This document shows, piece by piece, positions 1,912-38,848 of a stretch of 44,739 bases of DNA (its first letter is position 1; every line of letters starts with the position of its first letter). The stretch lies in the UHGV virus genome UHGV-0135379. One strand, 5' to 3'. The position numbers and the translations under genes were made by a program. The notes under the pieces were generated by a model that saw nothing but the letters and a program-made list of their open reading frames with translations, ran no database searches and had not been told where the DNA came from. The DNA is from a virus.

Positions 1912-2011
1912 GTTTCCCCTTTCTCGATAAGTAAAGCCCTGCCTTAAAGCAGGGCGCTAGTCCTTATCATTTAAACATAGAAACGGCGTAATCTCAGTAA
2001 ACCCGTTACTT

Positions 2012-2164
2012 TTTACACAAGCAATAGAGTATGGCCCTTCCGAACGCGTCAGCGTAACTACACTCAGGACTTACGTCCCGCTCCGTTACCTGCCCGCGCC
2101 GCGGTCGCTTGTTCATACTTCACAAGCTCAGGTGGAGCTTAGCACATTTTTGGTGAAAAGTCAA
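2012..2164 (+). repeat. Copy A of a ~150-bp non-coding element (perfect 51-bp core at 2099-2149)
   Basis: About 85% identity to 14230-14376 with a perfectly conserved core; no ORF; followed by an AT-rich tract. Confidence 0.8.
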
Positions 2165-2230
2165 CTATTCGAATAGTTTATTCCAACATTTACAATTGAG
2201 TGGAATAACCGGAATACATAAACAAATAGT

Positions 2231-2259
2231 TTGCGCACCCCAATATAATAGGGTACTAT
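2231..2259 (+). promoter_or_regulatory. Promoter TTGCGC-N17-TACTAT carrying palindrome AATAG-GGTA-CTATT (2247-2260); drives lipoprotein moron
   Basis: Near-identical 30-bp element also at 4374-4402; 17-bp spacer; about 30 nt upstream of ATG 2287. Confidence 0.6.
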
Positions 2260-2286
2260 TCATTCTATCGAACCGGGGAGGCCGTC

Positions 2287-3285: not shown

Positions 3286-4329
3286 TTATTCCCCTTTCAG
3301 ATAATCAGCAACACGTTTATCGAGTTCCGCCATCTGCTTAAGCGTCAGCGGATTCCCGAAACCATCTACAGATATTACGCGAAACTCTTCCGGCGATATA
3401 CCGCTGTTGCGGAAAATCTTACCTCGCACCGGGCCTAGAGCCTGGTCCTGAAACCATGCAGGTTGTTGTTTCAGGAACTCGTAGTAAGTGGTGTCCGCGC
3501 TTACCTGAGTACCGCCGTCCGCACCCTTAGCCGCACGTTTCGCACCTTTATCCAGGAAGTCGAACTCTGAACTGATTACAGGCGCAGTGGTGCTTCGGCA
3601 ATTCGGGTGTGCTGGGGGCATTGGCCCTTTACCGATTTCCCACGTCATCCCGTCTCTGGCTCTGCAAATAGTACTGGTGCGGCTGTCCAGCGTTGACACC
3701 CACTCGTACTTCTCGATGATGTCGTCGTTCTGGCGGTACGTCTCGTTACGTGCTTCGTTGGACACGTGAGACAGCGCGGTGCGGATTACTGTGGCTGCGT
3801 TACGTTCAGAGATGTCTGCCAGTCCGCCAGCGCCTACGACATTTTTAACAATCTGCCGTGTTGTCTGGCCTTGCACAAAACCCATCTTAACGCCGGTTAC
3901 AAGGCGAGAGACTTCTGTTTCACCCCAGCCGTCCATCAGCTTGGTGAAGTCTACTGGTTTGTCGCTTAGCGATAATGGTTGAAACTCCGCAGCAGCCCAC
4001 ACCTGCTCGGCGGTAGGTGTGATAAATTCTGCATTAACGTTAGTTGTCAGCGTTTTTACGTTCCACTCAGCCTCATATGTCGCCAGTTCCTTAAGGTCTT
4101 CTGTCAGCTTTGTTTGCCAGTCAACTGTAAGTCCTGCCAGTGCTTCTTCGAGGTCGCGTAACATTTTATTCAGTCGCGCGGTGCTGCGACCGTCGTCACC
4201 GAATAACAGCACCTGCCGTTTGATTTCGTCCCGCATTTCCTGAATAAACGGTGCAAGGTCTTTCACTTCTCCGGAAGCGGTTCGTTGCAGCCATATCTGG
4301 TGGCTGATTAAGGATGTAAGTAAGCTCAT
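3286..4329 (-). CDS. Head morphogenesis protein (phage Mu F-like / SPP1 gp7-like minor head protein)
   Basis: Conserved STLDSRTSTICRARDG-type motif; downstream of portal; ATG at 4329 with AGGAGGG RBS (track ORF extends to a TTG at 4386). Confidence 0.8.
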   Translation of the reverse strand: MSLLTSLISHQIWLQRTASGEVKDLAPFIQEMRDEIKRQVLLFGDDGRSTARLNKMLRDLEEALAGLTVDWQTKLTEDLKELATYEAEWNVKTLTTNVNAEFITPTAEQVWAAAEFQPLSLSDKPVDFTKLMDGWGETEVSRLVTGVKMGFVQGQTTRQIVKNVVGAGGLADISERNAATVIRTALSHVSNEARNETYRQNDDIIEKYEWVSTLDSRTSTICRARDGMTWEIGKGPMPPAHPNCRSTTAPVISSEFDFLDKGAKRAAKGADGGTQVSADTTYYEFLKQQPAWFQDQALGPVRGKIFRNSGISPEEFRVISVDGFGNPLTLKQMAELDKRVADYLKGE

Positions 4330-4373
4330 AAGCCCTCCTGTAGTATCGACAGTGTAACGCATAAAAATAATAT

Positions 4374-4402
4374 TTGCAGACACCAATATAATAGGGTACT
4401 AT
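4374..4402 (+). promoter_or_regulatory. Promoter TTGCAG-N17-TACTAT with AATAG-N4-CTATT box (4390-4403); drives the 63-aa moron
   Basis: Shares a 21-bp identical core with 2242-2262; correct spacing to ATG 4431. Confidence 0.6.
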
Positions 4403-4430
4403 TCAGTTATCGGAACGAGGAGATACATAA

Positions 4431-4622
4431 ATGTTATATTCTAAAGAATGGTATGAAATCATGGAATTATTCGAGAAGAACTGCAAGGGGCGCTTCCGCT
4501 TCGATCGTGAAACAAAAGAAATGTGGAAAATTGGTGCATACTATGAGAACGGTGAATGCAACGAATGGTTTAAAATGTATCTCGCGGGGTATATGGCGGG
4601 GCGAGCAGCGTACCTTAACTAA
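4431..4622 (+). CDS. Hypothetical 63-aa protein; moron with its own promoter and terminator
   Basis: ATG with GAGGAG RBS, promoter 4374-4402 upstream, hairpin plus T-run downstream; AT-rich; inserted between portal and head gene. Confidence 0.6.
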   Translation: MLYSKEWYEIMELFEKNCKGRFRFDRETKEMWKIGAYYENGECNEWFKMYLAGYMAGRAAYLN

Positions 4623-10187: not shown

Positions 10188-10673
10188 TCAACCTTTCACC
10201 GCGCGCCCGATAGCCTCAGCCTCCTGCCACGGTTTACCGTCGAACAGCGCCAGACGACCGGCGGTACGACGACGCAGTCCAAGTATCGGTTTGCCGTTCT
10301 GGTTGATGAACAGCGCCAGCTTAGCCCGCAGAGTCGTGACGTCACCAGAACGCAGCGCCTTACCTGTGCCCGTGGTAGCGGCAATCACGCCAGCGCCTGC
10401 GTTGTAGACCAGGTCACACACAGCGTCGAACTGTGCCTGTGTCAGTGAATGGTGCGCTGCCGCATCAACCGCAGCTACGGCTTTAGCCATATCGCGATTA
10501 AGTAACAGGAGGCCTTGTCCTGGAGTGATGGTCTGCCCCGCCTTAACATGCGGGCCATAGCTTCCATACCCAATAGTCAGGTACTTCTCATTCGGTGTAG
10601 CGCGATACGCGGTTCCGCGGAATCCCTCGAACGCGGCGGTGAATTTGATGCCATTGTTGCTAATGTTTCTCAT
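10188..10673 (-). CDS. Endolysin (T4/P22-type lysozyme-like muramidase)
   Basis: N-terminal ISNNGI..FEGFRG..Y motif typical of phage lysozymes; ATG overlaps HNH stop; terminator follows. Confidence 0.85.
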   Translation of the reverse strand: MRNISNNGIKFTAAFEGFRGTAYRATPNEKYLTIGYGSYGPHVKAGQTITPGQGLLLLNRDMAKAVAAVDAAAHHSLTQAQFDAVCDLVYNAGAGVIAATTGTGKALRSGDVTTLRAKLALFINQNGKPILGLRRRTAGRLALFDGKPWQEAEAIGRAVKG

Positions 10674-11203
10674 AAAGCACCTTCCCGTAATTTATGGTTC
10701 GCGAAAACCCCGTGTATCTTCTCTCTAGCTTCTTCGGCAACTAGCGCGGCTAGTTCTAGGTCCGCAAAGTATCCGTAAAAATACTTAATCTTATGTATTT
10801 TTAATTGAACGTACCATCCTCCTTGTTGCTTCTGCCACATAACGTTCTTAATACCGGATTTGCTGTCCTTTCTTGGCCCTTTGTTGCATCCGTTTTCGGA
10901 TTTGTTGGCTTCACGTAAATTACAGAATCTATTATCACGACCATCGCCGTTTATGTGGTCTATTAGGGAGTTGGGCCATTCCCCTGTCATGTATAGCCAA
11001 GCGAGACGATGCGCCAAGTACCGCTTCCCACCGAAGGCTATGGAGCGATAGCCTGCACAATGGTTGGCGCCAGCCTCACTTCCCGCCCGAGCATTGTGCA
11101 CACGTGTAGCTTTCCATGTAAAAACTCCGGTATCGGGGTCGTAGTGTAAAACCTCGCGCAGCTTATCTGCGGTAAGTCCATTATCTGAAATGTTTCGAGA
11201 CAC
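10670..11203 (-). CDS. HNH homing-type endonuclease (GTG start)
   Basis: LHYDPDTGVFTWK N-terminus and H-N-H/Cys cluster (DHINGDGRDNRFCNL); sits between holin genes and endolysin. Confidence 0.8.
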   Translation of the reverse strand: MSRNISDNGLTADKLREVLHYDPDTGVFTWKATRVHNARAGSEAGANHCAGYRSIAFGGKRYLAHRLAWLYMTGEWPNSLIDHINGDGRDNRFCNLREANKSENGCNKGPRKDSKSGIKNVMWQKQQGGWYVQLKIHKIKYFYGYFADLELAALVAEEAREKIHGVFANHKLREGAL

Positions 11204-13032: not shown

Positions 13033-13065
13033 AAGTCACTCAGTAAAATCCCAAACTATTGAACA

Positions 13066-13412: not shown

Positions 13413-13604
13413 TTAGTCCTCTAGAACTTCGCATTCACAGGAGTGCACAACCACATATCCGGCGTCACATTCGATAATGAACATATCGGAACCGGCCCGG
13501 GAAACCTCAAACACATCACCAAGGGCGACTCCCCAGTAACTAAGCGACAAATCGTCGCCATCGCGCGGGTCCACATAATCAACATCAGTTATACGAATTC
13601 TCAT
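13413..13604 (-). CDS. Hypothetical acidic protein (63 aa from ATG at 13604)
   Basis: ATG with GGGAGG RBS overlapping upstream stop (TAATG); track ORF starts at a TTG at 13613. Confidence 0.5.
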   Translation of the reverse strand: MRIRITDVDYVDPRDGDDLSLSYWGVALGDVFEVSRAGSDMFIIECDAGYVVVHSCECEVLED

Positions 13605-13819
13605 TAACGGCAACCTCCCTCAGAGTCGTCGGCACAAGCATCATTATTCGATGCCGGTTCTAGTAAAACGGTAACGCCACTTGCCTTCGTCAGAATGATA
13701 TAAACCGTCTGCAAATGTACGTACTGTTTTAACCAGGGACCTATTTCGGATTCACTGTTGAATTCTTTACTGGCTACAGTTTGTTTTGTCTCTTTCGATT
13801 TAATCTCCACCTTAATCAT
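13604..13819 (-). CDS. Hypothetical protein (71 aa)
   Basis: ATG with AAGGGG RBS, overlaps upstream stop. Confidence 0.5.
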   Translation of the reverse strand: MIKVEIKSKETKQTVASKEFNSESEIGPWLKQYVHLQTVYIILTKASGVTVLLEPASNNDACADDSEGGCR

Positions 13820-14004
13820 CACTTCGCCCCTTTGAATTTAAAATTGTTGCCGATGAGTGTTAAATTATCTCTGAAAGCGTAACCATGTTTCTTTCGTACA
13901 AGACCCCATACGTCTACAGCGGTACTATATTCATCCTCATTCTTGGTAACTATTACGTACTGTCCGCCGCGTTTTGTTTTAACCAACCGACCCTTCTTAA
14001 ACAT
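13819..14004 (-). CDS. Hypothetical basic protein (61 aa), first gene of the leftward early unit
   Basis: ATG at 14004 at good spacing from AGAGGAG; directly downstream of promoter 14039-14067. Confidence 0.5.
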   Translation of the reverse strand: MFKKGRLVKTKRGGQYVIVTKNEDEYSTAVDVWGLVRKKHGYAFRDNLTLIGNNFKFKGAK

Positions 14005-14038
14005 AACCATCACTCCTCTGTCTCGTTCCGATAAGTGA

Positions 14039-14067
14039 ATAGTATCCTATTATGTTGGGGTGTGCAA
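14039..14067 (-). promoter_or_regulatory. Leftward early promoter TTGCAC-N17-TACTAT with AATAG-N4-CTATT box (14038-14051)
   Basis: Near-identical to the element at 2231-2262 in reverse orientation; upstream of gene 13819-14004. Confidence 0.6.
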
Positions 14068-14229
14068 GATAATAGTTACGTTGCCGTTGTGATTCTTTTG
14101 TTTCTTTAAAGAGTACGCAACGCAGCGGGTGGGCTTTAGCCCACCCCAGCGGAGTGAAGTACTCTCTACCTTGCTTACGGCAACTATAGAAACTTTTAAT
14201 TATTAGTGACTTGGGCTATTTAGACGGGA

Positions 14230-14376
14230 TTTACAATAGATTATGGCCCTTCCGAATGCCGGCAGCGACACTACACTCAGTGCTGACGCACCGCTCCGTT
14301 TCCTGCCGCACCGCGGTCGCTTGTTCATACTTCACAAGCTCAGGTGGAGCTTAGCACATTTCTTAGTAAAAGTCAA
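14230..14376 (+). repeat. Copy B of the ~150-bp non-coding element (perfect 51-bp core at 14311-14361)
   Basis: Same orientation as copy A; lies in the 470-bp divergent early intergenic region. Confidence 0.8.
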
Positions 14377-14423
14377 TACCATTAGCATCTTTTGTATATT
14401 AGTAACTTTGTGTGGTGTTTTGG

Positions 14424-14452
14424 TTGCTTTTACATTCACGCTATCCTATACT
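14424..14452 (+). promoter_or_regulatory. Candidate rightward early promoter TTGCTT-N17-TATACT
   Basis: AT-rich region, 17-bp spacer, about 30 nt upstream of ATG 14484; no palindromic box. Confidence 0.4.
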
Positions 14453-14483
14453 CGTTTTCACCAAACAAACAGGAGATATAAAA

Positions 14484-14666
14484 ATGCAGCATTACATGAC
14501 ACAGAATGAAGTGGCTGAACGTATCGGGGTGACACGTCAAACAATTAATAACTGGTTGCGCAGCGGTAAATTCCCTGATTGCTGTATTAAGGTTATGGGT
14601 CGCCGTTTACCAGGAACATTTGACCGTAATAAAGTTGAAGCATGGATTAAGGAGAACGTGAAATGA
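14484..14666 (+). CDS. Small HTH DNA-binding protein (AlpA/excisionase-like fold), 60 aa
   Basis: Motif RIGVTRQTINNW; ATG with AGGAGA RBS; first gene of the rightward replication block. Confidence 0.6.
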   Translation: MQHYMTQNEVAERIGVTRQTINNWLRSGKFPDCCIKVMGRRLPGTFDRNKVEAWIKENVK

Positions 14667-14875
14667 TTGGGCGTATGGGTTGTTACTTTGAAAACTGTAA
14701 AGTTAAATACCGGTTTAAGTTTGCGCCGGAAATTACTGACAGCGGATTCTATGCGGAAATATGTAAGCCTAATCATTTGTTGGAACCGACACGCATTATT
14801 AAGATGCCAATCGAGGCTTTAAGTAAGTGTCGTTTCTACGCTTCGGAGCGTGCGTGGATTGCGGGCGTTAAGTAA
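14663..14875 (+). CDS. Hypothetical protein (70 aa)
   Basis: ATG overlapping upstream stop (ATGA). Confidence 0.5.
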   Translation: MIGRMGCYFENCKVKYRFKFAPEITDSGFYAEICKPNHLLEPTRIIKMPIEALSKCRFYASERAWIAGVK

Positions 14876-14943
14876 AAGAAACCCCAACGCCAGAACGTCG
14901 GGGCTAAAGTACAAATCATCAAAGTAAGCATAAGGATTATACA

Positions 14944-15072
14944 ATGACAAAGTTAATAGTTCCACAGCTACGCCGCCAGAAACACGGCGCTGACTTCTTC
15001 GCACCGGTAAAGATGAACCGCGCAATGCGCCGTATGCAGGAAGCCTTAGAACGTGCGGAGAAAAAGAAATGA
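14944..15072 (+). CDS. Hypothetical basic protein (42 aa)
   Basis: ATG with AAGGA RBS; stop overlaps primase-helicase start (ATGA). Confidence 0.4.
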   Translation: MTKLIVPQLRRQKHGADFFAPVKMNRAMRRMQEALERAEKKK

Positions 15073-17321
15073 ATATTGTTTTTGCAACGCTGCGCAACAC
15101 ATTCGATAAAAACCCTGTAGCGCGTGAGATGCCGCTCGAGCAGTTTGTGGAGTATGTCTGCGATACATCGAAGCGTTTATCCGTGGATCCGTCGTGGTCT
15201 AAGGAAGAGTACGACGCTGCCAAGATTAAGCAGAAAGCTATTGCGCCTGTTGGGGGTCGCCGTAAAAACGCTATCCTGGAAGACAGTGTGGTTAAGTTCG
15301 ATTTTGACCATCTCAACCGTACTCAGTACCGCGACCTTACCCGCAAATTCAAGAACGCACCGTTCTTCAATATTCTGCATACAACGGCATCGCATCAGCA
15401 TGTGTGTAAAAACGGTGATTACGCCTTCCGCGTTCTGGTTCCGGCTCGCACGCCGTTTAACTCTAACGACGCGTGGATGGTCCAACGGGCTATTTGTGCA
15501 GAGTTAGAAATAGATGAAGCCTTGCGTGACCACTGCACGGAAGACGGCAACCGCCTTATCTATCTGCCACATAGAGAGTCAAAGATAACGGTTACAGAAG
15601 GGCGTGTTATCCGTGCCGAGCGGTACATCAAGAAAGCCGAAGAGATGGGGTTGAGTAAACGTGAAGTTAAGACACTTGCCGCCGATGAGTATGGGCTTAA
15701 CGCTGATATAGCGCATTTCTGCGAAGCCGAGCTTGGCCTTGACGCTTTATCTTCCGGGCGCGGGTACGAAGTCCCATGCCCTAACGAACATCTGCATACA
15801 GGCAAAGGCTCCACAAGCATCATGCTTGATGGTAAAGAAGTGCGCTTTGTGTGCCAGCATACAAACAACGGCGCTTGCACCGAGCTTAACCGCCGACAGC
15901 ATTTGGCCCTGCGTATGTGCGGCCTGCCAGACGAGCTTAACGTAGACAAGCAACCTATCAGTATTAACAGCATTCGTGCGGCTCTGCCTGATTTACCGGA
16001 TGAAGAGATTGAAGAACTGCACCGCACAGAGAACGAGGAGCCTGTAACTTGCACGCTGGAAGACCTTGAAGAAGAGGACGAGTTACCAGAACCGGTAAAG
16101 GCTGATTTCGTCGTTGAGGGGTACATGCCGTCGGATTGTATCTGGGATATTGTCGGGGAATCCGGCACGTACAAATCATTCTATACGCTGGGGATGATGT
16201 ACCTGAGCGCCGCCGGGTACCGGTTTGCGGGGGCTGACACCCAACGTTGCCACCATTTCTATATTGACGGCGAGGGTGGTGCAGCTACACGAACACGTAT
16301 TGATGCACTCGCGGCTAAATATGGCGAGGAAGGTAAAGATTATGTACATGTCATCGATATGGGCGAAATACTCGCTACGCATGGTGATAAAAAAATTCCA
16401 GCTCTAATCCGCAGGATGCGCGAAACCGCAGGGGATGAACCTATTGGCATGGTTGCCTTCGACACCCTTAACCAGACGCTGGCCCTGACGATTGATAAGT
16501 TCGACGAGAACAGTTCATCAACGGCAATCGGTATGGGTAAAGTTATCGCCATCCTGAAAGAAGTGCGCGATGCAACTAAAGCCGCTGTCGGTGTCGTTCA
16601 CCATACTCCGAAGGGCGGAAAGAAAGCCCGCGGCAGTGGAGCATTGTATGCGGGTGTCGACGTGGAACTGACAATCGAACGCGCTACCGACCGTCAGATA
16701 AACGTATACCACTCTAAATTTAAGCACGGTCCGCAACAGAAGACGGTTGGCATGGTACTGGAGTCTGTACAGTTCCGTGAAGCACCGCCGCCGAAAGAGT
16801 ACCGCGCGGTTGAGTTCCTCGGTAGCACAGAGGAATACGGCACAATAGTAAACCTCGACCTGCCTGAGCCGCACAAGGCGCTTGTATTGATGCCGTGGGG
16901 CTTCGAGCCATTCAAGACCGACGAGGAGAAAGAGAGGGAAGAAGGGTTAACTAACGAAGGTAAACAAAATGTACGTAAAACCATAGAGAACGCCGTCAAC
17001 AGTTCCGAGGCCACGATACTCGCGGCGTTTGAACTGGCGGAGGGGACCTACAACGGCAACGAGGGCATCACGGTATCCGCAGCGAATAAGCTCGCGCAGT
17101 CTGACCCCAACGCAAAGGCGTTTAACTCCAAAGAAGCCATAGAACGCGGGAAGATTAAGAAAATGGTTGAGGCTGGGTATCTTGTTCCGGGTACTGACGA
17201 AAACAATCAGATAATCCCAGGCCGTTACAGACTGAACACCATGATAACAGATAACAAGATTCCGAAGACAATATACGAGCCGAATGAAATGCTGACAGTG
17301 ACCGAGGAGGATTTGGAATGA
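15069..17321 (+). CDS. DNA primase-polymerase (AEP-type) fused to a RecA/DnaB-like replicative helicase
   Basis: N-terminal DxD and sxH motifs (FDFDHL, ILHTTASH) plus Cys/His zinc cluster; C-terminal Walker A (GESGTYKS) and Walker B (VAFDTL). Confidence 0.8.
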   Translation: MNIVFATLRNTFDKNPVAREMPLEQFVEYVCDTSKRLSVDPSWSKEEYDAAKIKQKAIAPVGGRRKNAILEDSVVKFDFDHLNRTQYRDLTRKFKNAPFFNILHTTASHQHVCKNGDYAFRVLVPARTPFNSNDAWMVQRAICAELEIDEALRDHCTEDGNRLIYLPHRESKITVTEGRVIRAERYIKKAEEMGLSKREVKTLAADEYGLNADIAHFCEAELGLDALSSGRGYEVPCPNEHLHTGKGSTSIMLDGKEVRFVCQHTNNGACTELNRRQHLALRMCGLPDELNVDKQPISINSIRAALPDLPDEEIEELHRTENEEPVTCTLEDLEEEDELPEPVKADFVVEGYMPSDCIWDIVGESGTYKSFYTLGMMYLSAAGYRFAGADTQRCHHFYIDGEGGAATRTRIDALAAKYGEEGKDYVHVIDMGEILATHGDKKIPALIRRMRETAGDEPIGMVAFDTLNQTLALTIDKFDENSSSTAIGMGKVIAILKEVRDATKAAVGVVHHTPKGGKKARGSGALYAGVDVELTIERATDRQINVYHSKFKHGPQQKTVGMVLESVQFREAPPPKEYRAVEFLGSTEEYGTIVNLDLPEPHKALVLMPWGFEPFKTDEEKEREEGLTNEGKQNVRKTIENAVNSSEATILAAFELAEGTYNGNEGITVSAANKLAQSDPNAKAFNSKEAIERGKIKKMVEAGYLVPGTDENNQIIPGRYRLNTMITDNKIPKTIYEPNEMLTVTEEDLE

Positions 17322-17632: not shown

Positions 17633-17656
17633 AAAGAAAGGGGCTTTAAGCCCCTT
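17630..17656 (-). terminator. Terminator hairpin overlapping the end of the Cro-like regulator gene
   Basis: Stem AGGGGCTT/AAGCCCCT followed by TCTTTTT on the minus strand; no T-run on the plus strand. Confidence 0.5.
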
Positions 17657-17861
17657 CACCTAACGCCAGCCACTTGGCGTCTACTTCCAGAACTTCCGCC
17701 AGTTTGAACAGCGTTGCCGGGCGGACGTCCTGAGTTACTCCAAGTGCCAGTTGGTTAATCGCGCCCTGGGAAACGCCGGTCAGGGCCGCCAAACGGCGCT
17801 GGGAGATGCCGAGTTCTTTACGGCGTTGTTCTACACGGATACCTAGTTCAGATGGTTGCAT
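17646..17861 (-). CDS. XRE-family HTH regulator (Cro/CI-like, 71 aa)
   Basis: Motif QRRLAALTGVSQGAINQL; transcribed divergently from the rightward genes across an operator-bearing promoter region. Confidence 0.8.
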   Translation of the reverse strand: MQPSELGIRVEQRRKELGISQRRLAALTGVSQGAINQLALGVTQDVRPATLFKLAEVLEVDAKWLALGEGA

Positions 17862-32798: not shown

Positions 32799-34196
32799 TT
32801 AACCGTCCACATTAAAATCAATACGAGTGATGTATTTACTACCCCACGCCGAATCCGCTTGGGGTATGGAGGCGTAACCGTCAACAGCCTGAACGTTTAT
32901 CACGGAGCCGTCGGAGTAGGTAATGTCAATGCTTGTCGCACCATTCATGGTTACTTTTGCTGATGCCGTCGTTCGGGTTACCGGTGACGATTCGGTTACT
33001 ATTGGCGACGTGGCAAAAGGTGATTTTTCTATTTGCATCGCGCACACTAATATCCCACTAACCCCGTCACCGACAAATGAACCAACGGCGGAGTTGTTGT
33101 ACACCCATGACGCTAAAAGCAGAGAAGATGCGCCGCCCTGGCGTATAGCTACCGTTTCTGTAAATCGATACCAACCATCGCCAAGCTCTGCTATATCGCT
33201 GCCGGGGGCGCCAGCGTAAATAACCCCTGTCGATAAGTTAGCAACACAATCCGCGATAAACCCAGCATCATCAGCGGCGCGAAGTCTCGCATAATTATAA
33301 CCATATGCCTTAGCAACGTAACTGAGAGTGTATACATCACCCTCCGCAAAAGCGGAAGACACCGATTGATATGCGAGATGGCTGTCGTTTGTCTGGGTCG
33401 GGACTAGTGAGAACGTACCGCCGTTTAGAAATCCGTCAACTGCGTCCGACACTGTTGCTCTAGTTTTAGCCCACGATGCGTCAGATAATTTCGACGATTT
33501 AATCAGGATATTGCTGGATGTGGATTCTGGCGGCACACGCCCGACCGCAACACCATCAATGAACGTAAGAGGCCATTCATTGGCGGCGGACTGCACAAGA
33601 TTGCCATTTCGGTTGATGTAGTAAACCTGTGGCCCATCGTAAACAATGCGGCTATCAAGAGTCGACGCCAGAAGGTTAATCGGTGGATACCCGGCAGGCA
33701 CTTCATTGCTCCAGATGCGCGGGAACGTAGTTTCGTAGTTCGCGTATATTTTCAGGAAACTACCCAGACAATCCCCGTAACAACCGTACAAATCTGGAAG
33801 ATTGTTAATCAGGCACTGGTTCTCGAGGTCCTGGAACGGTGATTTCTCAGCGGTTGCCGTGAAAGTAATCGTCCAGTTAATCCCGTCTTCAGTGGACTCC
33901 GCAATGGTGGACGTGATTGTCACCTGGTAGTCCTCAATACCCATGCCGAAGTCGTGCGCCATCCAGAAACTCGACGCACCACCGTCGACTTTCTCAAGGA
34001 ACGACAGAAACGCCTGCCGACCCAGCGCCGATGTAATCAGGGTTACGCTTACCGGGAACACGTCATAATACGTGTCACGGCCCTGACGCACCCCGCCACC
34101 GGCTAAATCTACGCTCCAGACGTTGTTACGTCTGGTCATTGAGTAGCCTTTCGACACCACCGGCTTAAGGCTACGTGGGAAATATAATTCGGTCAT
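32799..34196 (-). CDS. Distal tail / minor tail protein
   Basis: 465 aa, immediately after tape measure; start overlaps tape measure stop (TAATG). Confidence 0.5.
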   Translation of the reverse strand: MTELYFPRSLKPVVSKGYSMTRRNNVWSVDLAGGGVRQGRDTYYDVFPVSVTLITSALGRQAFLSFLEKVDGGASSFWMAHDFGMGIEDYQVTITSTIAESTEDGINWTITFTATAEKSPFQDLENQCLINNLPDLYGCYGDCLGSFLKIYANYETTFPRIWSNEVPAGYPPINLLASTLDSRIVYDGPQVYYINRNGNLVQSAANEWPLTFIDGVAVGRVPPESTSSNILIKSSKLSDASWAKTRATVSDAVDGFLNGGTFSLVPTQTNDSHLAYQSVSSAFAEGDVYTLSYVAKAYGYNYARLRAADDAGFIADCVANLSTGVIYAGAPGSDIAELGDGWYRFTETVAIRQGGASSLLLASWVYNNSAVGSFVGDGVSGILVCAMQIEKSPFATSPIVTESSPVTRTTASAKVTMNGATSIDITYSDGSVINVQAVDGYASIPQADSAWGSKYITRIDFNVDG

Positions 34197-36535
34197 TATT
34201 TGAACCCCGGCGCATTTCTTGTGGCCTTGCGGGCCTTGCTAATCTTACTGTTACTGTTCTGCAAAGAGGCAGCCACTTGCTCCTCGATGATGATACGCAA
34301 ACGGCCTTCATCATCTTGCTCAGTGGATACGTTGCCTATTTGAGAACTCGTGTTATTTACGATAGTAACATTAGATGGGCCGGAAGAAGACCCGTTTTGA
34401 CCCATAATTTCTTTCATCTGCTGCGCGGTGCGCACACGTGATGCACCAGCCGGCATGATAACTTCTGGTTTACCGCGCTCGGCGATGGTGGAAGCCTGTC
34501 CCGCAGATAACTGACCGCCCTGTTCACGCGCGGACCTGATAGCGGAAACCTGAGCCATACCTGCACCAACGGCAGCGGCAGCGGCTACAGGGGCCAGGAA
34601 CGGACCAACTACAGGGATAGCCGCCGTGGACTTGTAAGCCTCGATAGCTGCGGTGTACGTGGCTATGGTGGCCTGTACGATAGCGAATGCCTTATACGCA
34701 CCAGAAGCCTCGCCCAACGCAGACCCGATGTTTGACGCCATGTTACCGAAGGCGGTTGCCGTTGCGTCGGCTCGCTTGGTTGCGTACTGCTCGTTGATGG
34801 CGTTAAGCGCGGCCTGATACTGCTTCTCGCTAATAAGACCCTGTTCACGGTACTTATCGGCTACTGCCAGTTTCTGCTGTTCCTGAATATCCAGAAGCTC
34901 AAGCTCGGTGGCGTTCTGACCCATAATCTGAGCCATGAAATCCTCGCCTTTCTGCTGATTCTCCTGGGCCTCCTTCCTTTTCTTATCCAGTTCTTCCTGG
35001 CGGGCCTGTTCCGCGGATAACATAATCTGCGTCTTGGCGTTTTCGTACTGTTGGTCGCTAAGAAGCTTATTGCTATAGAAGTCCTGCAACTTAGACAGTT
35101 GCTCTTCCTGGTTAGCTTCTATTTTCTGAAATACGTCATCATTAAGATGGATTGACTGATAGTAGAAGTCTTCCGCCGCTTTTTTCTGGCGCTCGAACGC
35201 GTCCGCCGCTTTCTTAGCGGCTTTTGCGGCTGACCCGTCATCGTCAGAACCGCCGCCAGTTCCGGTTACCTTAAATTTGTTTAACCCCTCAGCTTTTGCG
35301 GACTCCTTATCGATGTCATACGCCGCGCGTTTTAACGCTACAATATCCTGTTGAGCTTCTACCTGTTCGCGGAAACTTTTACGCGTAACGTCGGTGACAT
35401 CGCGCTGGGTATCCAAAGCCAGGCCAAGCTGGAAGTTGATATTTTTAGCTACGTCTACTGATTCCCCGGGGGTAAAAGCGGCTCGTACAAGACGGCCCGC
35501 GTCCTGCGCGCCTTTAACCATATCTTCAAAGAATCTCTCCATCGCGGTGAACTCTTCCGCGATGAAGTCAAGCGCATCGGCGGCGGATTCAGCGATGGTA
35601 GTAGCCGTTTGTTCTCCGCTATCCGTAATACTCTTGCTGCTGAAATCCCACAGTTCATTAAGCCCGTTGATGGCATCGCCAACAAAGCCAAACGCAGCGT
35701 CGAATGACATCTCGATAGCGCTTCCTACTTCCGACGCGATGTTCCCCCACATCTGCATTTCAGCGGCTAATTCACCGGAAGCAACAGACGCGTTTAATTC
35801 CTGAATCAAGTCATCGATATACCTGATAGGTTCAGCAAGTGCGCCAACATCAAGACTGGTGGCAAGCGTCATTTTTAGCTGCGACCATGAGTCACTGGCA
35901 CTCGCGATAGCGCCGTTAAGGGTGTTGGCCTGGTCAGCCATAGCCCCCGCAAAATTTACGTTACCAATGTTAAGTAAATACTGCTCAATATCGGCAGCGC
36001 TTTTCTTAACTACGGTTGTCGTTCCCTGGAACGTAAACTCTACGTCGGTTTTGTTCTGCTTGGCTTTGATGCCGAATTCTTTGAGGCGTTCGAACTCAAA
36101 CGTACTGGCGTCGGCTACCGCCTCAATCATCTGATTAAGGTCCTTACCCATAGCCGATGCGGTATTGCCGTAGGACCGCAACGCCTCCTCGGATGGGGTA
36201 AGGCCAAGGGCCACCAGCTTACGGAAGCCTTCCACCGCCTGCTCCAGTCCGTATGGGGTGTCGCGTGCAAAATCTTGCAGGATACTTAGCGCCTGTTTAG
36301 CACCTTGGGTACTTCCGGTTAAGGTCTTCAAACTGGCGGACATCTTGTCCAGTTGCCGCTGTGAGTCAACTAGTTCTTGGGCGGCTTTATACGCGGTAGC
36401 CGCTACGATAGAAGCGAGGCCTGCTACGGCGGCCCCCGCTACTTTTGCGGACTTTGAAAGATTATCAAGACGGTCTGATGTGGCTTTCGCGCCTTGCTCT
36501 GATACTTTTACGACTAAACTAGCTACATCAGCCAT
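34196..36535 (-). CDS. Tail tape measure protein
   Basis: 779 aa, Ala/Gln/Glu-rich helical composition, follows G/GT chaperones. Confidence 0.85.
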   Translation of the reverse strand: MADVASLVVKVSEQGAKATSDRLDNLSKSAKVAGAAVAGLASIVAATAYKAAQELVDSQRQLDKMSASLKTLTGSTQGAKQALSILQDFARDTPYGLEQAVEGFRKLVALGLTPSEEALRSYGNTASAMGKDLNQMIEAVADASTFEFERLKEFGIKAKQNKTDVEFTFQGTTTVVKKSAADIEQYLLNIGNVNFAGAMADQANTLNGAIASASDSWSQLKMTLATSLDVGALAEPIRYIDDLIQELNASVASGELAAEMQMWGNIASEVGSAIEMSFDAAFGFVGDAINGLNELWDFSSKSITDSGEQTATTIAESAADALDFIAEEFTAMERFFEDMVKGAQDAGRLVRAAFTPGESVDVAKNINFQLGLALDTQRDVTDVTRKSFREQVEAQQDIVALKRAAYDIDKESAKAEGLNKFKVTGTGGGSDDDGSAAKAAKKAADAFERQKKAAEDFYYQSIHLNDDVFQKIEANQEEQLSKLQDFYSNKLLSDQQYENAKTQIMLSAEQARQEELDKKRKEAQENQQKGEDFMAQIMGQNATELELLDIQEQQKLAVADKYREQGLISEKQYQAALNAINEQYATKRADATATAFGNMASNIGSALGEASGAYKAFAIVQATIATYTAAIEAYKSTAAIPVVGPFLAPVAAAAAVGAGMAQVSAIRSAREQGGQLSAGQASTIAERGKPEVIMPAGASRVRTAQQMKEIMGQNGSSSGPSNVTIVNNTSSQIGNVSTEQDDEGRLRIIIEEQVAASLQNSNSKISKARKATRNAPGFK

Positions 36536-36887
36536 CGTTTCTACCCTCGAAAATAGCGTCTAAGCTCATGATGATGTCAGATTCGAACATCCCTATATTC
36601 TGGCCTGAAACGGTGCTGTACGCCACTAAATCTGACCATCGTAATTGCTCGCGCGGGTACATCTTGATGCCGTCGTCGTCCACTCGGCGGGTGAATTTAA
36701 TTTCCCTGTACTTCTCAAATGTGGTTAGTAGTTCAGGGGGGCATTCCGGCCCAGTGGCCTGCGTTGCGTCCGGCGCGTCTTGCATAACCCCCATAGCAAT
36801 TAGCGCGGCTTTATGCCCATCGGCGATACTGTCAAATTCCCGCCGTTTGTGGCGGGTTATGAAGTTCCAACGGGCGAACTGGAGCAA
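36528..36887 (-). CDS. Tail assembly chaperone T segment (-1 frame relative to G; probably expressed as a G-T fusion)
   Basis: -1 frame ORF overlapping the last codons of G, no ATG of its own (TTG only), overlaps tape measure start. Confidence 0.5.
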   Translation of the reverse strand: MLQFARWNFITRHKRREFDSIADGHKAALIAMGVMQDAPDATQATGPECPPELLTTFEKYREIKFTRRVDDDGIKMYPREQLRWSDLVAYSTVSGQNIGMFESDIIMSLDAIFEGRNDG

Positions 36888-36892
36888 CGCGT

Positions 36893-37309
36893 CTACTTTT
36901 CCTGTAGCTGGTGCAGTTGTTCGTTATGAAACACAACAACAAGTTCCGCGAGTCGTTTATATTGCGTCAGGAGTGTGTTCAGATTCTCTTTATTGAATTC
37001 GTCGTCAAGGCTCCACCCGTTAACCAATTCAACCGCTAACTGACGGTTAAGGTCCGTCGCCGCGTCTTCCATCTTCAGGTTGTATTCAGAGAAATCTTTC
37101 ATCTCTTCGCACTTATCACGAAGCGGTTTTAATTTCCCTAACACTGCCCGGTATGCAAGGGTGAACGCGCGCATAGCCTTAACGGCAACGTCTGCCTCAG
37201 GAGAAACAACATTAAGCCATTCCCCGGAATCGGTACCGTCTTTTAATGGTATCGGCATACGTGCACCCTTTTCAGCTTCAGCTTCGTAATAAAAATCAGA
37301 AAGTTTCAT
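36893..37309 (-). CDS. Tail assembly chaperone (lambda G-like)
   Basis: 138 aa acidic protein between major tail and tape measure genes; ATG with AAGGA RBS. Confidence 0.6.
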   Translation of the reverse strand: MKLSDFYYEAEAEKGARMPIPLKDGTDSGEWLNVVSPEADVAVKAMRAFTLAYRAVLGKLKPLRDKCEEMKDFSEYNLKMEDAATDLNRQLAVELVNGWSLDDEFNKENLNTLLTQYKRLAELVVVFHNEQLHQLQEK

Positions 37310-37416
37310 TCTTTAATCCTTTGGTTAAGAGGTTACTGGTTAAAGGAAATGCGCCAGACGGGAACCACCCGCTTTTCGTGTGCGACACTAGGCGCAAAAT
37401 TATTCTAACATACTAC

Positions 37417-37445
37417 TTGCACACCCTGATATAATAGCGTACTAT
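37417..37445 (+). promoter_or_regulatory. Promoter TTGCAC-N17-TACTAT with AATAG-CGTA-CTATT box (37433-37446); drives the 4-gene plus-strand island
   Basis: Same architecture as the moron and leftward early promoters; about 40 nt upstream of ATG 37488. Confidence 0.6.
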
Positions 37446-37487
37446 TCACTTACACCAACGATGTTATCTCAAATCAGGAGTTATGTT

Positions 37488-37717: not shown

Positions 37718-38848
37718 ATGGCCCGGAAGAAAATAACCGACGAACAGTTACAGGAAGAATTGAACGCCGGAATGAAGAATGTAGACATCGCCCGTAAATA
37801 CGGCATCTCAGACCGCGTAATTCGTATCCGTAAAGCGAAGCTGGCTAAGAAAGGTGTAGGTCACGGACGTGATGTTAGCCACCTTGTCCCGGACGGCTAT
37901 AAGATTAAAGGAACGTCGTCACTGGTGGATGAGTTCGGCAACACTAAGTTGCAATGGGTTAAGACCGACACTGACGCCGAACGTCAGGTTGAATTGATGA
38001 AAGCCGTGATCGAAGGCATGAAATCGGAGATTACGCCCGTTGCACCTGTTAAAGCCGTTCGTGCCAAACGGGACGATAAGCTGCTCAATCTTTACACTGT
38101 ATCCGATTTCCATCTCGGTATGCTGGCCTGGGCCGACGAGAGCGGCGACGACTGGGACATGAAGATTGCGGAAGACCTGTTCTCTCGTTGGTTCGATGCA
38201 GCATTCCAGAAAGCACCGGATGCCGGTACTGGGGTTATCAATCTTCTTGGCGACTTAGCGCACTTCGATAGTCTTGATGCCGTTACGCCCGCAAGCGGTC
38301 ATGTCCTTGACGCTGACACGCGCTATCAGAAACTGGTCCGTTACATGATTCGTATGGTCCGCCGTGTCGTTGATATGGCGTTGGTTAAGCATAAAAATGT
38401 TCGCTTGCTTATCGTGCAAGGGAATCACGACGAATCGGGTATGATTTGGTTGGCTGAGATGTTCAGTACGCTGTACGACAATGAGCCGCGCGTGTTCGTC
38501 GATACGTCGCCGGATGTTTACAAGATGGTGCAACACGGCAAAACGACGCTGTTCTTCCATCACGGGCATAAAGCACGATTCGACGCTATCGAACCGGTTA
38601 TGATTGCCAAGTTCCGTAAAGCGTTCGGCGAGAGTGTTTACAGCTACGCCCACGTAGGCCATCTGCACCACCAGAAGATTGTAGAAAGCCGTAACATGAT
38701 TGTTGAGCAACACCGCACCTTAGCGGCTAAAGACGCCTACGCCTCTCGCGGCGGATGGATGTCGGGCCGCAGTGCAAATGTAATTACTTATAGCGCCGAA
38801 TATGGCGAGGTCGCACGTTTAACTATTTCACCGGAGATGCTGGGATGA
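37718..38848 (+). CDS. Calcineurin-like metallophosphoesterase with N-terminal HTH-like domain
   Basis: Motifs DFHLG, GDLAHFD, QGNHDE, HHGH, GHLHH; ATG with GAGGAAG RBS. Confidence 0.75.
   Translation: MARKKITDEQLQEELNAGMKNVDIARKYGISDRVIRIRKAKLAKKGVGHGRDVSHLVPDGYKIKGTSSLVDEFGNTKLQWVKTDTDAERQVELMKAVIEGMKSEITPVAPVKAVRAKRDDKLLNLYTVSDFHLGMLAWADESGDDWDMKIAEDLFSRWFDAAFQKAPDAGTGVINLLGDLAHFDSLDAVTPASGHVLDADTRYQKLVRYMIRMVRRVVDMALVKHKNVRLLIVQGNHDESGMIWLAEMFSTLYDNEPRVFVDTSPDVYKMVQHGKTTLFFHHGHKARFDAIEPVMIAKFRKAFGESVYSYAHVGHLHHQKIVESRNMIVEQHRTLAAKDAYASRGGWMSGRSANVITYSAEYGEVARLTISPEMLG

Follow-up and report, generated by a model that had tools for sequence, protein, structure and literature searches.

The genome of UHGV-0135379, a stretch of 44,739 nucleotides (nt) referred to as the window in the following, is identified as the practically complete genome of a phage of the genus Kagunavirus (Guernseyvirinae), with vB_EcoM_SHAK7858 as its nearest relative. 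It harbors two copies of a non-coding element, denoted copy A (2012-2164) and copy B (14230-14376). Comparison with homologous sequences makes it very probable that the element is a structured RNA, encoded on the minus strand and linked to a promoter, and it is best described as a hitherto undescribed family of structured leader RNAs that are fused to their own promoter and have no entry in Rfam. With respect to function, we tentatively favor a cis-acting leader that would govern read-through of downstream terminators (antitermination), related in logic to the put and nut sites. A cis-acting RNA with a role in antitermination had also been the first candidate of an initial annotation of this stretch.

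The two regions are paralogous and share the same orientation. BLAST aligns copy A to copy B with 88.3% identity over 145 nt (E = 5e-44), in agreement with the two diverged copies of about 150 base pairs (bp) that the initial annotation had described. The longest identical run between them is the reported core of 51 nt (2099-2149 and 14311-14361, correct to the coordinate), and the inverted repeats CTTGT-N9-ACAAG and AAGCTC-N5-GAGCTT noted within this core are found in both copies.

Homologues of the element fall into two main types. The type of the window (K type) is found in about 180 GenBank phage records with 95-100% identity, among them some Salmonella Jerseyviruses; a copy at the second place (copy B) exists in only about 43 of these K-type records. 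A diverged homologue at the same site as copy A (J type) is found in most Jerseyviruses (282 records including Jersey, SETP3 and MB78). A covariance model derived from the K type scores the J type with 29-42 bits. The Enterobacter phage phiEap-2 carries a still more distant version of the element.

Genome orientation and operon layout were taken from the RefSeq maps of Golestan, K1H and the Jerseyvirus FSL SP-101, according to which the minus strand of the window is the conventional "rightward" strand. Region B (approximately 14.0-14.5 kb) is the start of a rightward operon that comprises small early genes, holins, endolysin, terS, terL, portal and head genes. The operon closes at a strong terminator (2821-2802), beyond which the opposite strand encodes a small cassette. 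In region A (approximately 1.9-2.3 kb) rightward transcription has to restart for the spanin, scaffold, major capsid and tail genes. Given this layout, the copies are located at the heads of both long rightward operons, both on the minus strand. Copy B had been placed before the replication genes; the minus-strand element instead points into the operon of early, lysis, terminase and head genes. Copy A is located between the strong terminator of the preceding operon and a terminator-like hairpin 25 nt before the spanin-scaffold-capsid-tail operon. Further strong minus-strand terminators are found within both downstream operons (at 13033, 4648, 44303 and 39911). The AT-rich tracts that had been reported to follow both copies are present; with respect to the direction of transcription, however, they precede the promoter.

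The promoter of copy A (2136-2164, minus strand) consists of a -35 hexamer TTGACT (2164-2159), a spacer of 17 nt with the dinucleotide TG at 2144-2143, and a -10 hexamer TAAGCT (2141-2136). The promoter of copy B (14348-14376, minus strand) has the same geometry, with TTGACT at 14376-14371, a 17-nt spacer, TG, and TAAGCT at 14353-14348, but differs in the sequence of the spacer. Across approximately 45 copies from public phage and viral-contig collections, both hexamers and the TG are invariant, whereas the spacer and the "n" of TGn vary, a pattern characteristic of an extended -10 promoter recognized by sigma-70. The J type and phiEap-2 retain this geometry. A simple consensus promoter scan overlooks the promoter, because TAAGCT and TATAAT agree in no more than 3 of 6 positions. 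An independent prediction of a host promoter at the site of copy A, with a terminator further on, comes from the annotation of phage fBC-Eco01 (PMC9825357). From the promoter geometry, transcription is predicted to start at a G located 7 nt past the -10 hexamer (2129 in copy A and 14341 in copy B, minus strand); position 2129 is also the 5' end of the covariance-model match.

The promoter of site A is preceded by a dyad, GGAATA-AAC-TATTCG (2170-2184, minus strand), that ends 5 nt before the -35 hexamer and has no counterpart in copy B. The dyad is found at equal spacing in the K type, in the J type (GGAATA-CTT-TATTCA) and in phiEap-2 (GGAATA-AAT-TATTCC). It is probably the binding site of a regulatory protein acting on the site-A promoter. 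In the K type, a perfect palindrome of 16 bp, AACTATTCGAATAGTT (2153-2168), overlaps this dyad.

The predicted minus-strand RNA comprises 108 nt and consists of a 5' hairpin (stem-loop SL1), an irregular hairpin of 65 nt (SL2) and a conserved tail AAGGGCC..CUAUUG. In copy A, SL1 (2107-2127, minus strand; RNA +3 to +23) is formed by GCUUGU-GAAGUAUGA-ACAAGC; SL1 of copy B (14319-14339, minus strand) is identical. The hairpin is predicted in every K-type variant and, being invariant within the K type, provides no covariation there. In the J type, a hairpin ACGCU-UUC-AGCGU is found at the equivalent place. SL2 of copy A (2040-2104, minus strand) is built from the helices P2a (CCG/CGG), P2b (GGCGCG/CGCGUU), P2c (CAG/CUG) and P2d (GUAAC/GUUAC), an internal loop (GGAG/AGUGUA) and the apical helix P2e (CGGGAC-GUAA-GUCCUG). 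SL2 of copy B (14252-14316, minus strand) differs from it by compensatory changes: a C-G pair in P2b is replaced by U-A, a U-A pair in P2d by A-U, and GGGAC/GUCC in P2e by GGUGC/GCAC. The apical stem occurs in at least five versions (GGGAC/GUCC, CGGAC/GUCCG, GGUGC/GCAC, GGGGC/GCCC and CACGU/ACGUG). Directly 3' of SL2 follows the apparently single-stranded tail, AAGGGCCAUACUCUAUUG in copy A (2022-2039, minus strand) and AAGGGCCAUAAUCUAUUG in copy B (14234-14251, minus strand), where the homology to copy A stops. The part CGGAAGGG(C/U)C of the tail is retained in K-type, J-type, SLMP1 (see below) and phiEap-2 versions.

The inverted repeat AAGCTC-N5-GAGCTT, as well as TACGCT-N3-AGCGTA in the J type, spans the -10 hexamer and the start site. 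Since it straddles the -10 hexamer and the predicted start, the AAGCTC/GAGCTT repeat cannot form in RNA. The 51-bp core, in which the initial annotation had noted the two inverted repeats, is a composite of extended -10 promoter, start site, SL1 and the base of SL2, and not a single RNA motif.

The structure is supported by compensatory changes. We used a sequence-only MAFFT alignment of 23 distinct variants, which is unbiased toward structure. In this alignment, 92.7% of cells are paired in the SL1+SL2 structure, compensatory cells number 38 versus 13.0 +/- 2.7 after shuffling (reached in 0 of 500 shuffles), and the covariation score is 0.180 versus 0.076. When the 3' partners are slid, pairing falls to 30-40%. 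Independent minimum-energy folds of 18 variants yield an identical SL1+SL2 architecture despite different sequences. With a covariance model built from the 23-variant alignment, 43 distinct sequences were aligned, the diverged Jerseyvirus type among them. In this alignment, which is fitted to the structure and thus leans toward it, 94.9% of cells pair, 16 of 29 pairs exhibit double changes, and compensatory cells number 133 versus 31.6 +/- 6 after shuffling. G-U pairs (70 cells) outnumber A-C juxtapositions (15 cells), and the minimum free energies of copies A/B are -39.9/-36.8 kcal/mol for the minus strand versus -26.7/-26.8 kcal/mol for the plus strand; on both grounds the functional strand is taken to be the minus strand. 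The covariation of SL2 is strong, and its G-U bias fixes the strand.

A structured, duplicated, non-coding element with genuine covariation, as proposed initially, is thus borne out by the SL1+SL2 statistics, but by another hairpin than the one originally put forward. The letters of the latter (CGTAA/TTACG in one copy, CAGCG/TGCTG in the other) are present, yet they occupy non-homologous columns. Across the 23 variants only 75% of its cells pair, with one covarying pair, which makes it the weaker alternative; moreover it is mutually exclusive with P2d and P2e (the latter with GGGAC/GUCC in copy A versus GGUGC/GCAC in copy B), which belong to the 92.7%-paired structure. Two further pairings were tried and discarded. 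For a long-range closing helix of AGUAUG with CAUACU, the partner position takes all four bases although G12 is invariant. A riboswitch-type pairing of SL2 or tail with the 5' arm of the terminator amounts to 4-6 bp only, and is inconsistent between types; in addition, the apical hairpin is missing in SLMP1.

The strand asymmetry of the pairing (G-U far above A-C) bears on the proposal that the element acts as DNA, be it as an origin of replication, as a site for packaging, or as an operator consisting of the palindromes that surround the start. Such a role would fit copy B, which adjoins the primase-helicase module, and the palindromes over -10 hexamer and start, which cannot form in RNA; an operator function of this sub-part is also compatible with a leader RNA. 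Nevertheless, the helices are held by compensatory change and not by sequence, the terminase genes are 5 kb away, and most phages do not have the copy in region B. Together with the promoter and terminator signatures, these observations speak against the replication or packaging site considered in the initial annotation, and we regard a DNA-level site as very improbable.

Long irregular hairpins near a 5' end are known from the RNase III sites of T7 and lambda. SL2, with its internal loops and its position near the 5' end of the transcript, has this appearance, and its structure is supported by the 18 folds and the covariation; the element might accordingly serve in mRNA processing or stability, with SL2 as an RNase III-type site or a 5' stabilizer of the late mRNA. 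However, loop and tail are conserved far beyond the need of such sites, phage SLMP1 keeps only about 8 bp of SL2, and a promoter that travels with the RNA has no explanation in these terms. A processing element is thus considered quite improbable.

With respect to coding capacity, the minus-strand open reading frame (ORF) within the element is annotated in homologous position as a 38-aa coding sequence in fBC-Eco01. The frame comprises 36 codons in copy A (36-41 overall). Indels shorten it to 9-22 codons in several relatives, and in its middle part copies A and B are read in different phases; a small protein gene is therefore rejected, in line with the non-coding nature proposed initially. Likewise rejected is a mini-ORF after the Shine-Dalgarno-like GGAAGGG, as some variants have CUG or UUA in place of its UUG and a start codon is missing at this point in phiEap-2. 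ARAGORN finds neither a tRNA nor a tmRNA, as expected from the absence of tRNA-like features noted before. The element has no match in Rfam 15 at gathering score, and only chance-level matches appear when E values up to 10 are admitted. Neither the genome reports nor the single transcriptome paper devoted to these phages mentions the element.

The site of copy A is the least variable stretch of its neighborhood. Nucleotide diversity is 0.025-0.05 over 2183-1884 versus 0.07-0.20 in the flanking structural genes, and the element is 96% identical to that of FSL SP-101, compared to an average of 77% for the aligned genome. Several features are common to K and J types: the dyad GGAATA-N3-TATTC, the promoter T(T/A)GACT-17-TGnTA(A/C)GCT, the base of SL2 (CCG-C-GG(C/U)GCG ... 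CGC(G/A)UU-CGG), the motifs AAGGG(C/U)C and UAUUGCUU, and a covarying hairpin ahead of the ribosome-binding site of the spanin gene. Copy A is the ancestral and universal copy. Outside of these phages, no copy is found in 5,426 complete E. coli genomes, and all contigs returned by scans of viral contigs are of the size expected for Guernseyvirinae. In 185,579 species genomes, the core pattern has mostly chance matches in GC-rich genomes and one true match. The latter (JAEWLW010000073.1, 2136-2245, 98 bits) is located on a 6.2-kb contig of a metagenome-assembled genome labeled "Bacillota bacterium", and is almost certainly a mis-binned Guernseyvirinae phage contig.

Copy B has a different history. 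In K1H and FSL SP-101, region B holds a non-homologous promoter, a leader of about 200-300 nt and a hairpin, with the same second promoter downstream. Since these phages hold other promoter-leader units at this place, copy B is a lineage-specific duplicate of the site-A cassette that has replaced another promoter-leader cassette. In addition, the site-A copy of one genome (L026) has a B-type SL2, which shows gene conversion between the sites. A recent duplication without functional constraint, named initially among the outcomes that would refute the proposal, is refuted for copy A, but the duplication that gave rise to copy B is indeed restricted to a lineage, with gene conversion. We note that region B is highly plastic. 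In Golestan, copy B is followed by a (CTCA)n microsatellite (~37800-37830), and the leaders of K1H (34850-35260) and FSL SP-101 (35090-35480) are unrelated, each behind its own strong promoter, with short shared motifs such as TATCTAAGTT. These alternative leaders have chance-level matches only in Rfam.

Two natural variants are informative. In FSL SP-101, a patch of about 600 bp (3901-4500) in a Jerseyvirus backbone is of K type. The patch is centered on the element, spans the 3' end of a Hoc-like gene, and is 81-96% identical to Kagunaviruses but only 64-67% to other Jerseyviruses. K and J versions are thus interchangeable, which suggests a conserved partner of the element, with the host transcription machinery as the simplest candidate. 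A search for a partner by co-variation of gene content reveals no linked gene, the K patch of FSL SP-101 being confined to the element. Further K-like patches of this genome are found in the portal gene (601-1500), in the tail chaperone and tape-measure genes (13501-16200) and in early genes (35401-36600). The second variant is the Salmonella phage SLMP1, in which a natural deletion of about 41 nt (33814-33867, minus strand), seen in this isolate only, removes the distal part of SL2. SLMP1 retains P2a and P2b, capped by a GGAC loop, as well as the tail, and the base of SL2 together with the tail therefore constitutes the minimal core.

The RNA core of site A is followed by a linker of 66 nt (1956-2021, minus strand) that separates it from the terminator and contains a weak promoter-like sequence (TTTACT-16-TATGTT). 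The nucleotide diversity of the linker (0.025-0.034) is as low as that of the core, and it is partly alignable between K and J types; the annotation of fBC-Eco01 lists a "host promoter 2" in this region. The terminator-like hairpin (1927-1955, minus strand), GCCCUGC-UUUAAG-GCAGGGC (1955-1936) followed by UUUACUUAU, lies about 25 nt before the spanin start codon at 1911. It is called by a terminator scan of the window, and ARNold predicts it in fBC-Eco01 (PMC9825357). Its stem covaries: in the K type GCCCUGC/GCAGGGC alternates with GCCCCGC/GCGGGGC, and in the J type GCCCGGC/GCCGGGC alternates with GCCCGAC/GUCGGGC. Downstream of copy B lies a GC-rich hairpin without U tract, GGGUGGGC-UAAA-GCCCACCC (14127-14146, minus strand), which the terminator scan does not call. 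This hairpin lies outside the repeat and belongs to the scaffold of region B, as it is also found in K1H, which has no copy B.

Taken together, promoter, RNA and hairpin suggest the following mechanism, which we put forward with reserve. Host sigma-70 RNA polymerase would transcribe each copy from the minus strand, and the nascent leader would act in cis on the very polymerase that made it, either alone, as the put RNA of HK022 does by way of the zinc-binding domain of the beta' subunit, or by recruiting a host or phage factor, as in the case of nut. Elongation would thereby become resistant to the terminator just downstream as well as to the terminators inside the long operon, such that expression of the distal late genes would be limited to transcripts begun at the element promoter. 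As a by-product, a short leader RNA, terminated after about 200 nt, would be expected. The arrangement in Jerseyviruses fits such a mechanism: the element promoter directly follows the terminator of the preceding gene, and late transcription must therefore start at the element promoter and pass the hairpin. The position of the element is fixed in about 180 K-type and about 280 J-type records.

Several observations weigh against antitermination in cis. In most phages copy B is missing and its place is taken by unrelated leaders; where copy B is present, a second promoter (14036-14070, minus strand; TTGCAC-17-TACTAT) lies between it and the first early gene, such that the operon is independent of the element. 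A good U tract is lacking in the hairpins that follow the J-type element and copy B, and these hairpins may not terminate. SLMP1 is viable despite the loss of the whole distal SL2. The SL1 equivalent of the J type overlaps the predicted start, and the architecture of two stem-loops may not be universal. The conserved dyad of site A suggests that timing could be set at initiation instead. Finally, the one transcriptome paper on the group reports genes only, and the model of the element has no match at the put sites of HK022.

The second promoter of region B also figures in the main rival explanation, namely a stand-alone small RNA gene whose product of about 200 nt would act in trans on a host factor or mRNA (as a decoy, a regulator or an anti-defense RNA), with the operon being served by leaky read-through. 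With a promoter behind copy B, service to the genes in cis is not needed there. The cassette of promoter, RNA and terminator is self-contained, has been duplicated and exchanged between lineages, and is extremely conserved even at unpaired positions such as CGGAAGGGCC. On the other hand, its place 25 nt before the late operon is strictly fixed, and in Jerseyviruses that operon has no alternative promoter. A typical Hfq-type tail with a long U stretch is not seen at the 3' end, and copy B has no terminator of its own. The antisense complementarity of the leader to other phage transcripts is at chance level, without excess, and nothing leader-like is found in E. coli genomes, although short antisense seeds are outside the reach of that search. 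We therefore judge a small RNA gene as unlikely.

Among known systems, the element resembles the putL/putR sites of HK022 and the late region PR'-tR' of lambda in logic, by analogy of arrangement, and is a member of neither the put nor the nut family as judged from sequence. The put sites are two similar copies just downstream of sigma-70 promoters that head long operons; each comprises about 70 nt with two bulged stem-loops from about +3, the initially transcribed part contains a NANNAT hexamer, terminators are located downstream, and a dedicated antiterminator gene is not recognizable (PMC9378689). Likewise, the two related copies of the element follow predicted sigma-70 promoters at operon heads with terminators downstream, the stem-loops of the K type begin a few nt from the start, a weak NANNAT hexamer (AAGUAU) is found in the early transcribed region, and no dedicated antiterminator gene is recognizable among the 20 small ORFs scanned. 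In contrast to put, the element comprises approximately 92-108 nt, with one short and one long hairpin and a conserved tail, the two stem-loops of the K type, at about 92 nt, being proportioned differently, and its phage is a virulent siphovirus, unlike the lambdoid HK022, with both copies pointing the same way. When run with filters off against the whole HK022 genome, the covariance model has no match at the PL or PR leaders; its only match (17.6 bits) is at PR' (36892-36956), where the SL1 part of the model aligns weakly with an inverted repeat, GTTGGG-TAAATTTGA-CCCAAC, that flanks the PR' -10 hexamer. This match is probably due to chance. With lambda nut (boxA and boxB) and the rrn antiterminator the element shares paired cis-acting RNA sites near two operon starts, and a hairpin followed by a conserved single-stranded stretch. 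Different from these, the boxA consensus GCUCUUUA is fitted at only 5-6 of 8 positions by (A/G)CUCUAUU, with positions varying within the family, critical ones too, and reading of the sequences revealed neither a boxB-like conserved loop nor an N homologue. The ops/RfaH and boxA motifs were rejected on the same basis, the fit being too poor.

A cassette of constitutive-looking promoter, terminator about 200 nt further on, and lysis and morphogenesis genes is also found in lambda PR'-qut-6S RNA-tR' and in PalpB-tB of P. aeruginosa (PMC9371919). A control of the lambda PR'-tR' type would imply a Q- or AlpA-like protein that loads at a sigma-dependent promoter-proximal pause, with the fold of the RNA being secondary. 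In accordance with this, a -10-like hexamer may lie near the transcription start: the J type repeats its -10 hexamer TACGCT exactly, 3 nt after the -10, and the K type has GAGCTT (nAnnnT) at +1 to +6, to be compared with CACGAT at -1 to +5 of PalpB and with the Q paradigm (PMC9371919). The third rightward restart of the window (see below) is likewise an extended -10 promoter followed by a terminator-like RNA, and the weak model match falls into the PR' region of HK022. However, phiEap-2 has no -10-like hexamer, and the spacer between -35 and -10, where the elements for lambda Q and AlpA lie, is not conserved between copy A, copy B, copy B of Golestan and the J type. Furthermore, the RNA of the element is itself under structural selection, and helices maintained by covariation would have no explanation. 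A Q-, AlpA- or N-type antiterminator is not recognized among the 20 small ORFs scanned (against PHROGs; 10 of them also against Pfam), nor is one named in the RefSeq annotations, where many ORFs are of unknown function and only part of them was scanned. The sole HTH_17 protein has 56 aa and is too small for the nozzle fold of AlpA (PMC9371919). Late control by a protein of this type is hence deemed improbable. The HTH_17 protein is an excisionase-like DNA-binding protein encoded by the first gene of the leftward replication operon (14496-14666, plus strand), in a phage without integrase. Together with a Cro-like helix-turn-helix protein (17649-17861, minus strand), it is the only recognizable transcription regulator found.

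The Guernseyvirinae, which have neither an encoded RNA polymerase nor a recognizable Q or N protein to switch on their late genes, include many Kagunavirus and Jerseyvirus isolates used for therapy, biocontrol and the BASEL collection. The module described here is the most conserved non-coding stretch beside the structural genes in more than 450 sequenced isolates, located where late transcription must start. A stronger version of the antitermination reading, which we consider doubtful, is a self-sufficient RNA: a second class after HK022 put and unrelated to it, in which the nascent RNA alone would render the polymerase of E. coli or Salmonella resistant to terminators. If true, late-gene expression throughout a subfamily of virulent siphoviruses would be driven by such an RNA, which would pass from lineage to lineage as a cassette together with its promoter. 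An RNA that reprograms the host polymerase would be a rare new case of RNA-mediated processive antitermination and a portable engineering part consisting of a promoter and about 110 nt. Even a small RNA would represent a new and very widespread phage RNA family absent from Rfam.

The second promoter of region B is one of four copies of a 25-bp motif, CCCCAAYATAATAGGRTACTATTCA (TTGCRC-17-TACTAT; 0 copies expected by chance), located at 2238-2262 (+), 4381-4405 (+), 14036-14060 (-) and 37424-37448 (+). Three of them drive small cassettes on the opposite strand and one drives the early rightward genes. A dyad AATAG-N4-CTATT spans the -10 region of the motif, which corresponds to the PHIRE "phage promoter" reported for fBC-Eco01 (PMC9825357). 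The sole Rfam match in the window is an int-alpA RNA (RF02996, 36.6 bits; 37334-37398, minus strand) with a promoter at approximately 37405-37435 (minus strand). It directly follows the extended -10 promoter TGTTAGAAT, and the U-rich tract at its 3' end lies just upstream of the tail assembly chaperone gene. Judged by this position, the third rightward restart also consists of a promoter and a structured terminator-like leader. The element has in common with this RNA motif the place directly after an extended -10 promoter, in the same genome, but differs from it in sequence and fold and gives no match to RF02996. Within the lysis cassette of the operon headed by copy B, an ORF for an HNH homing endonuclease (10673-11203, minus strand) is inserted between the holin and endolysin genes.

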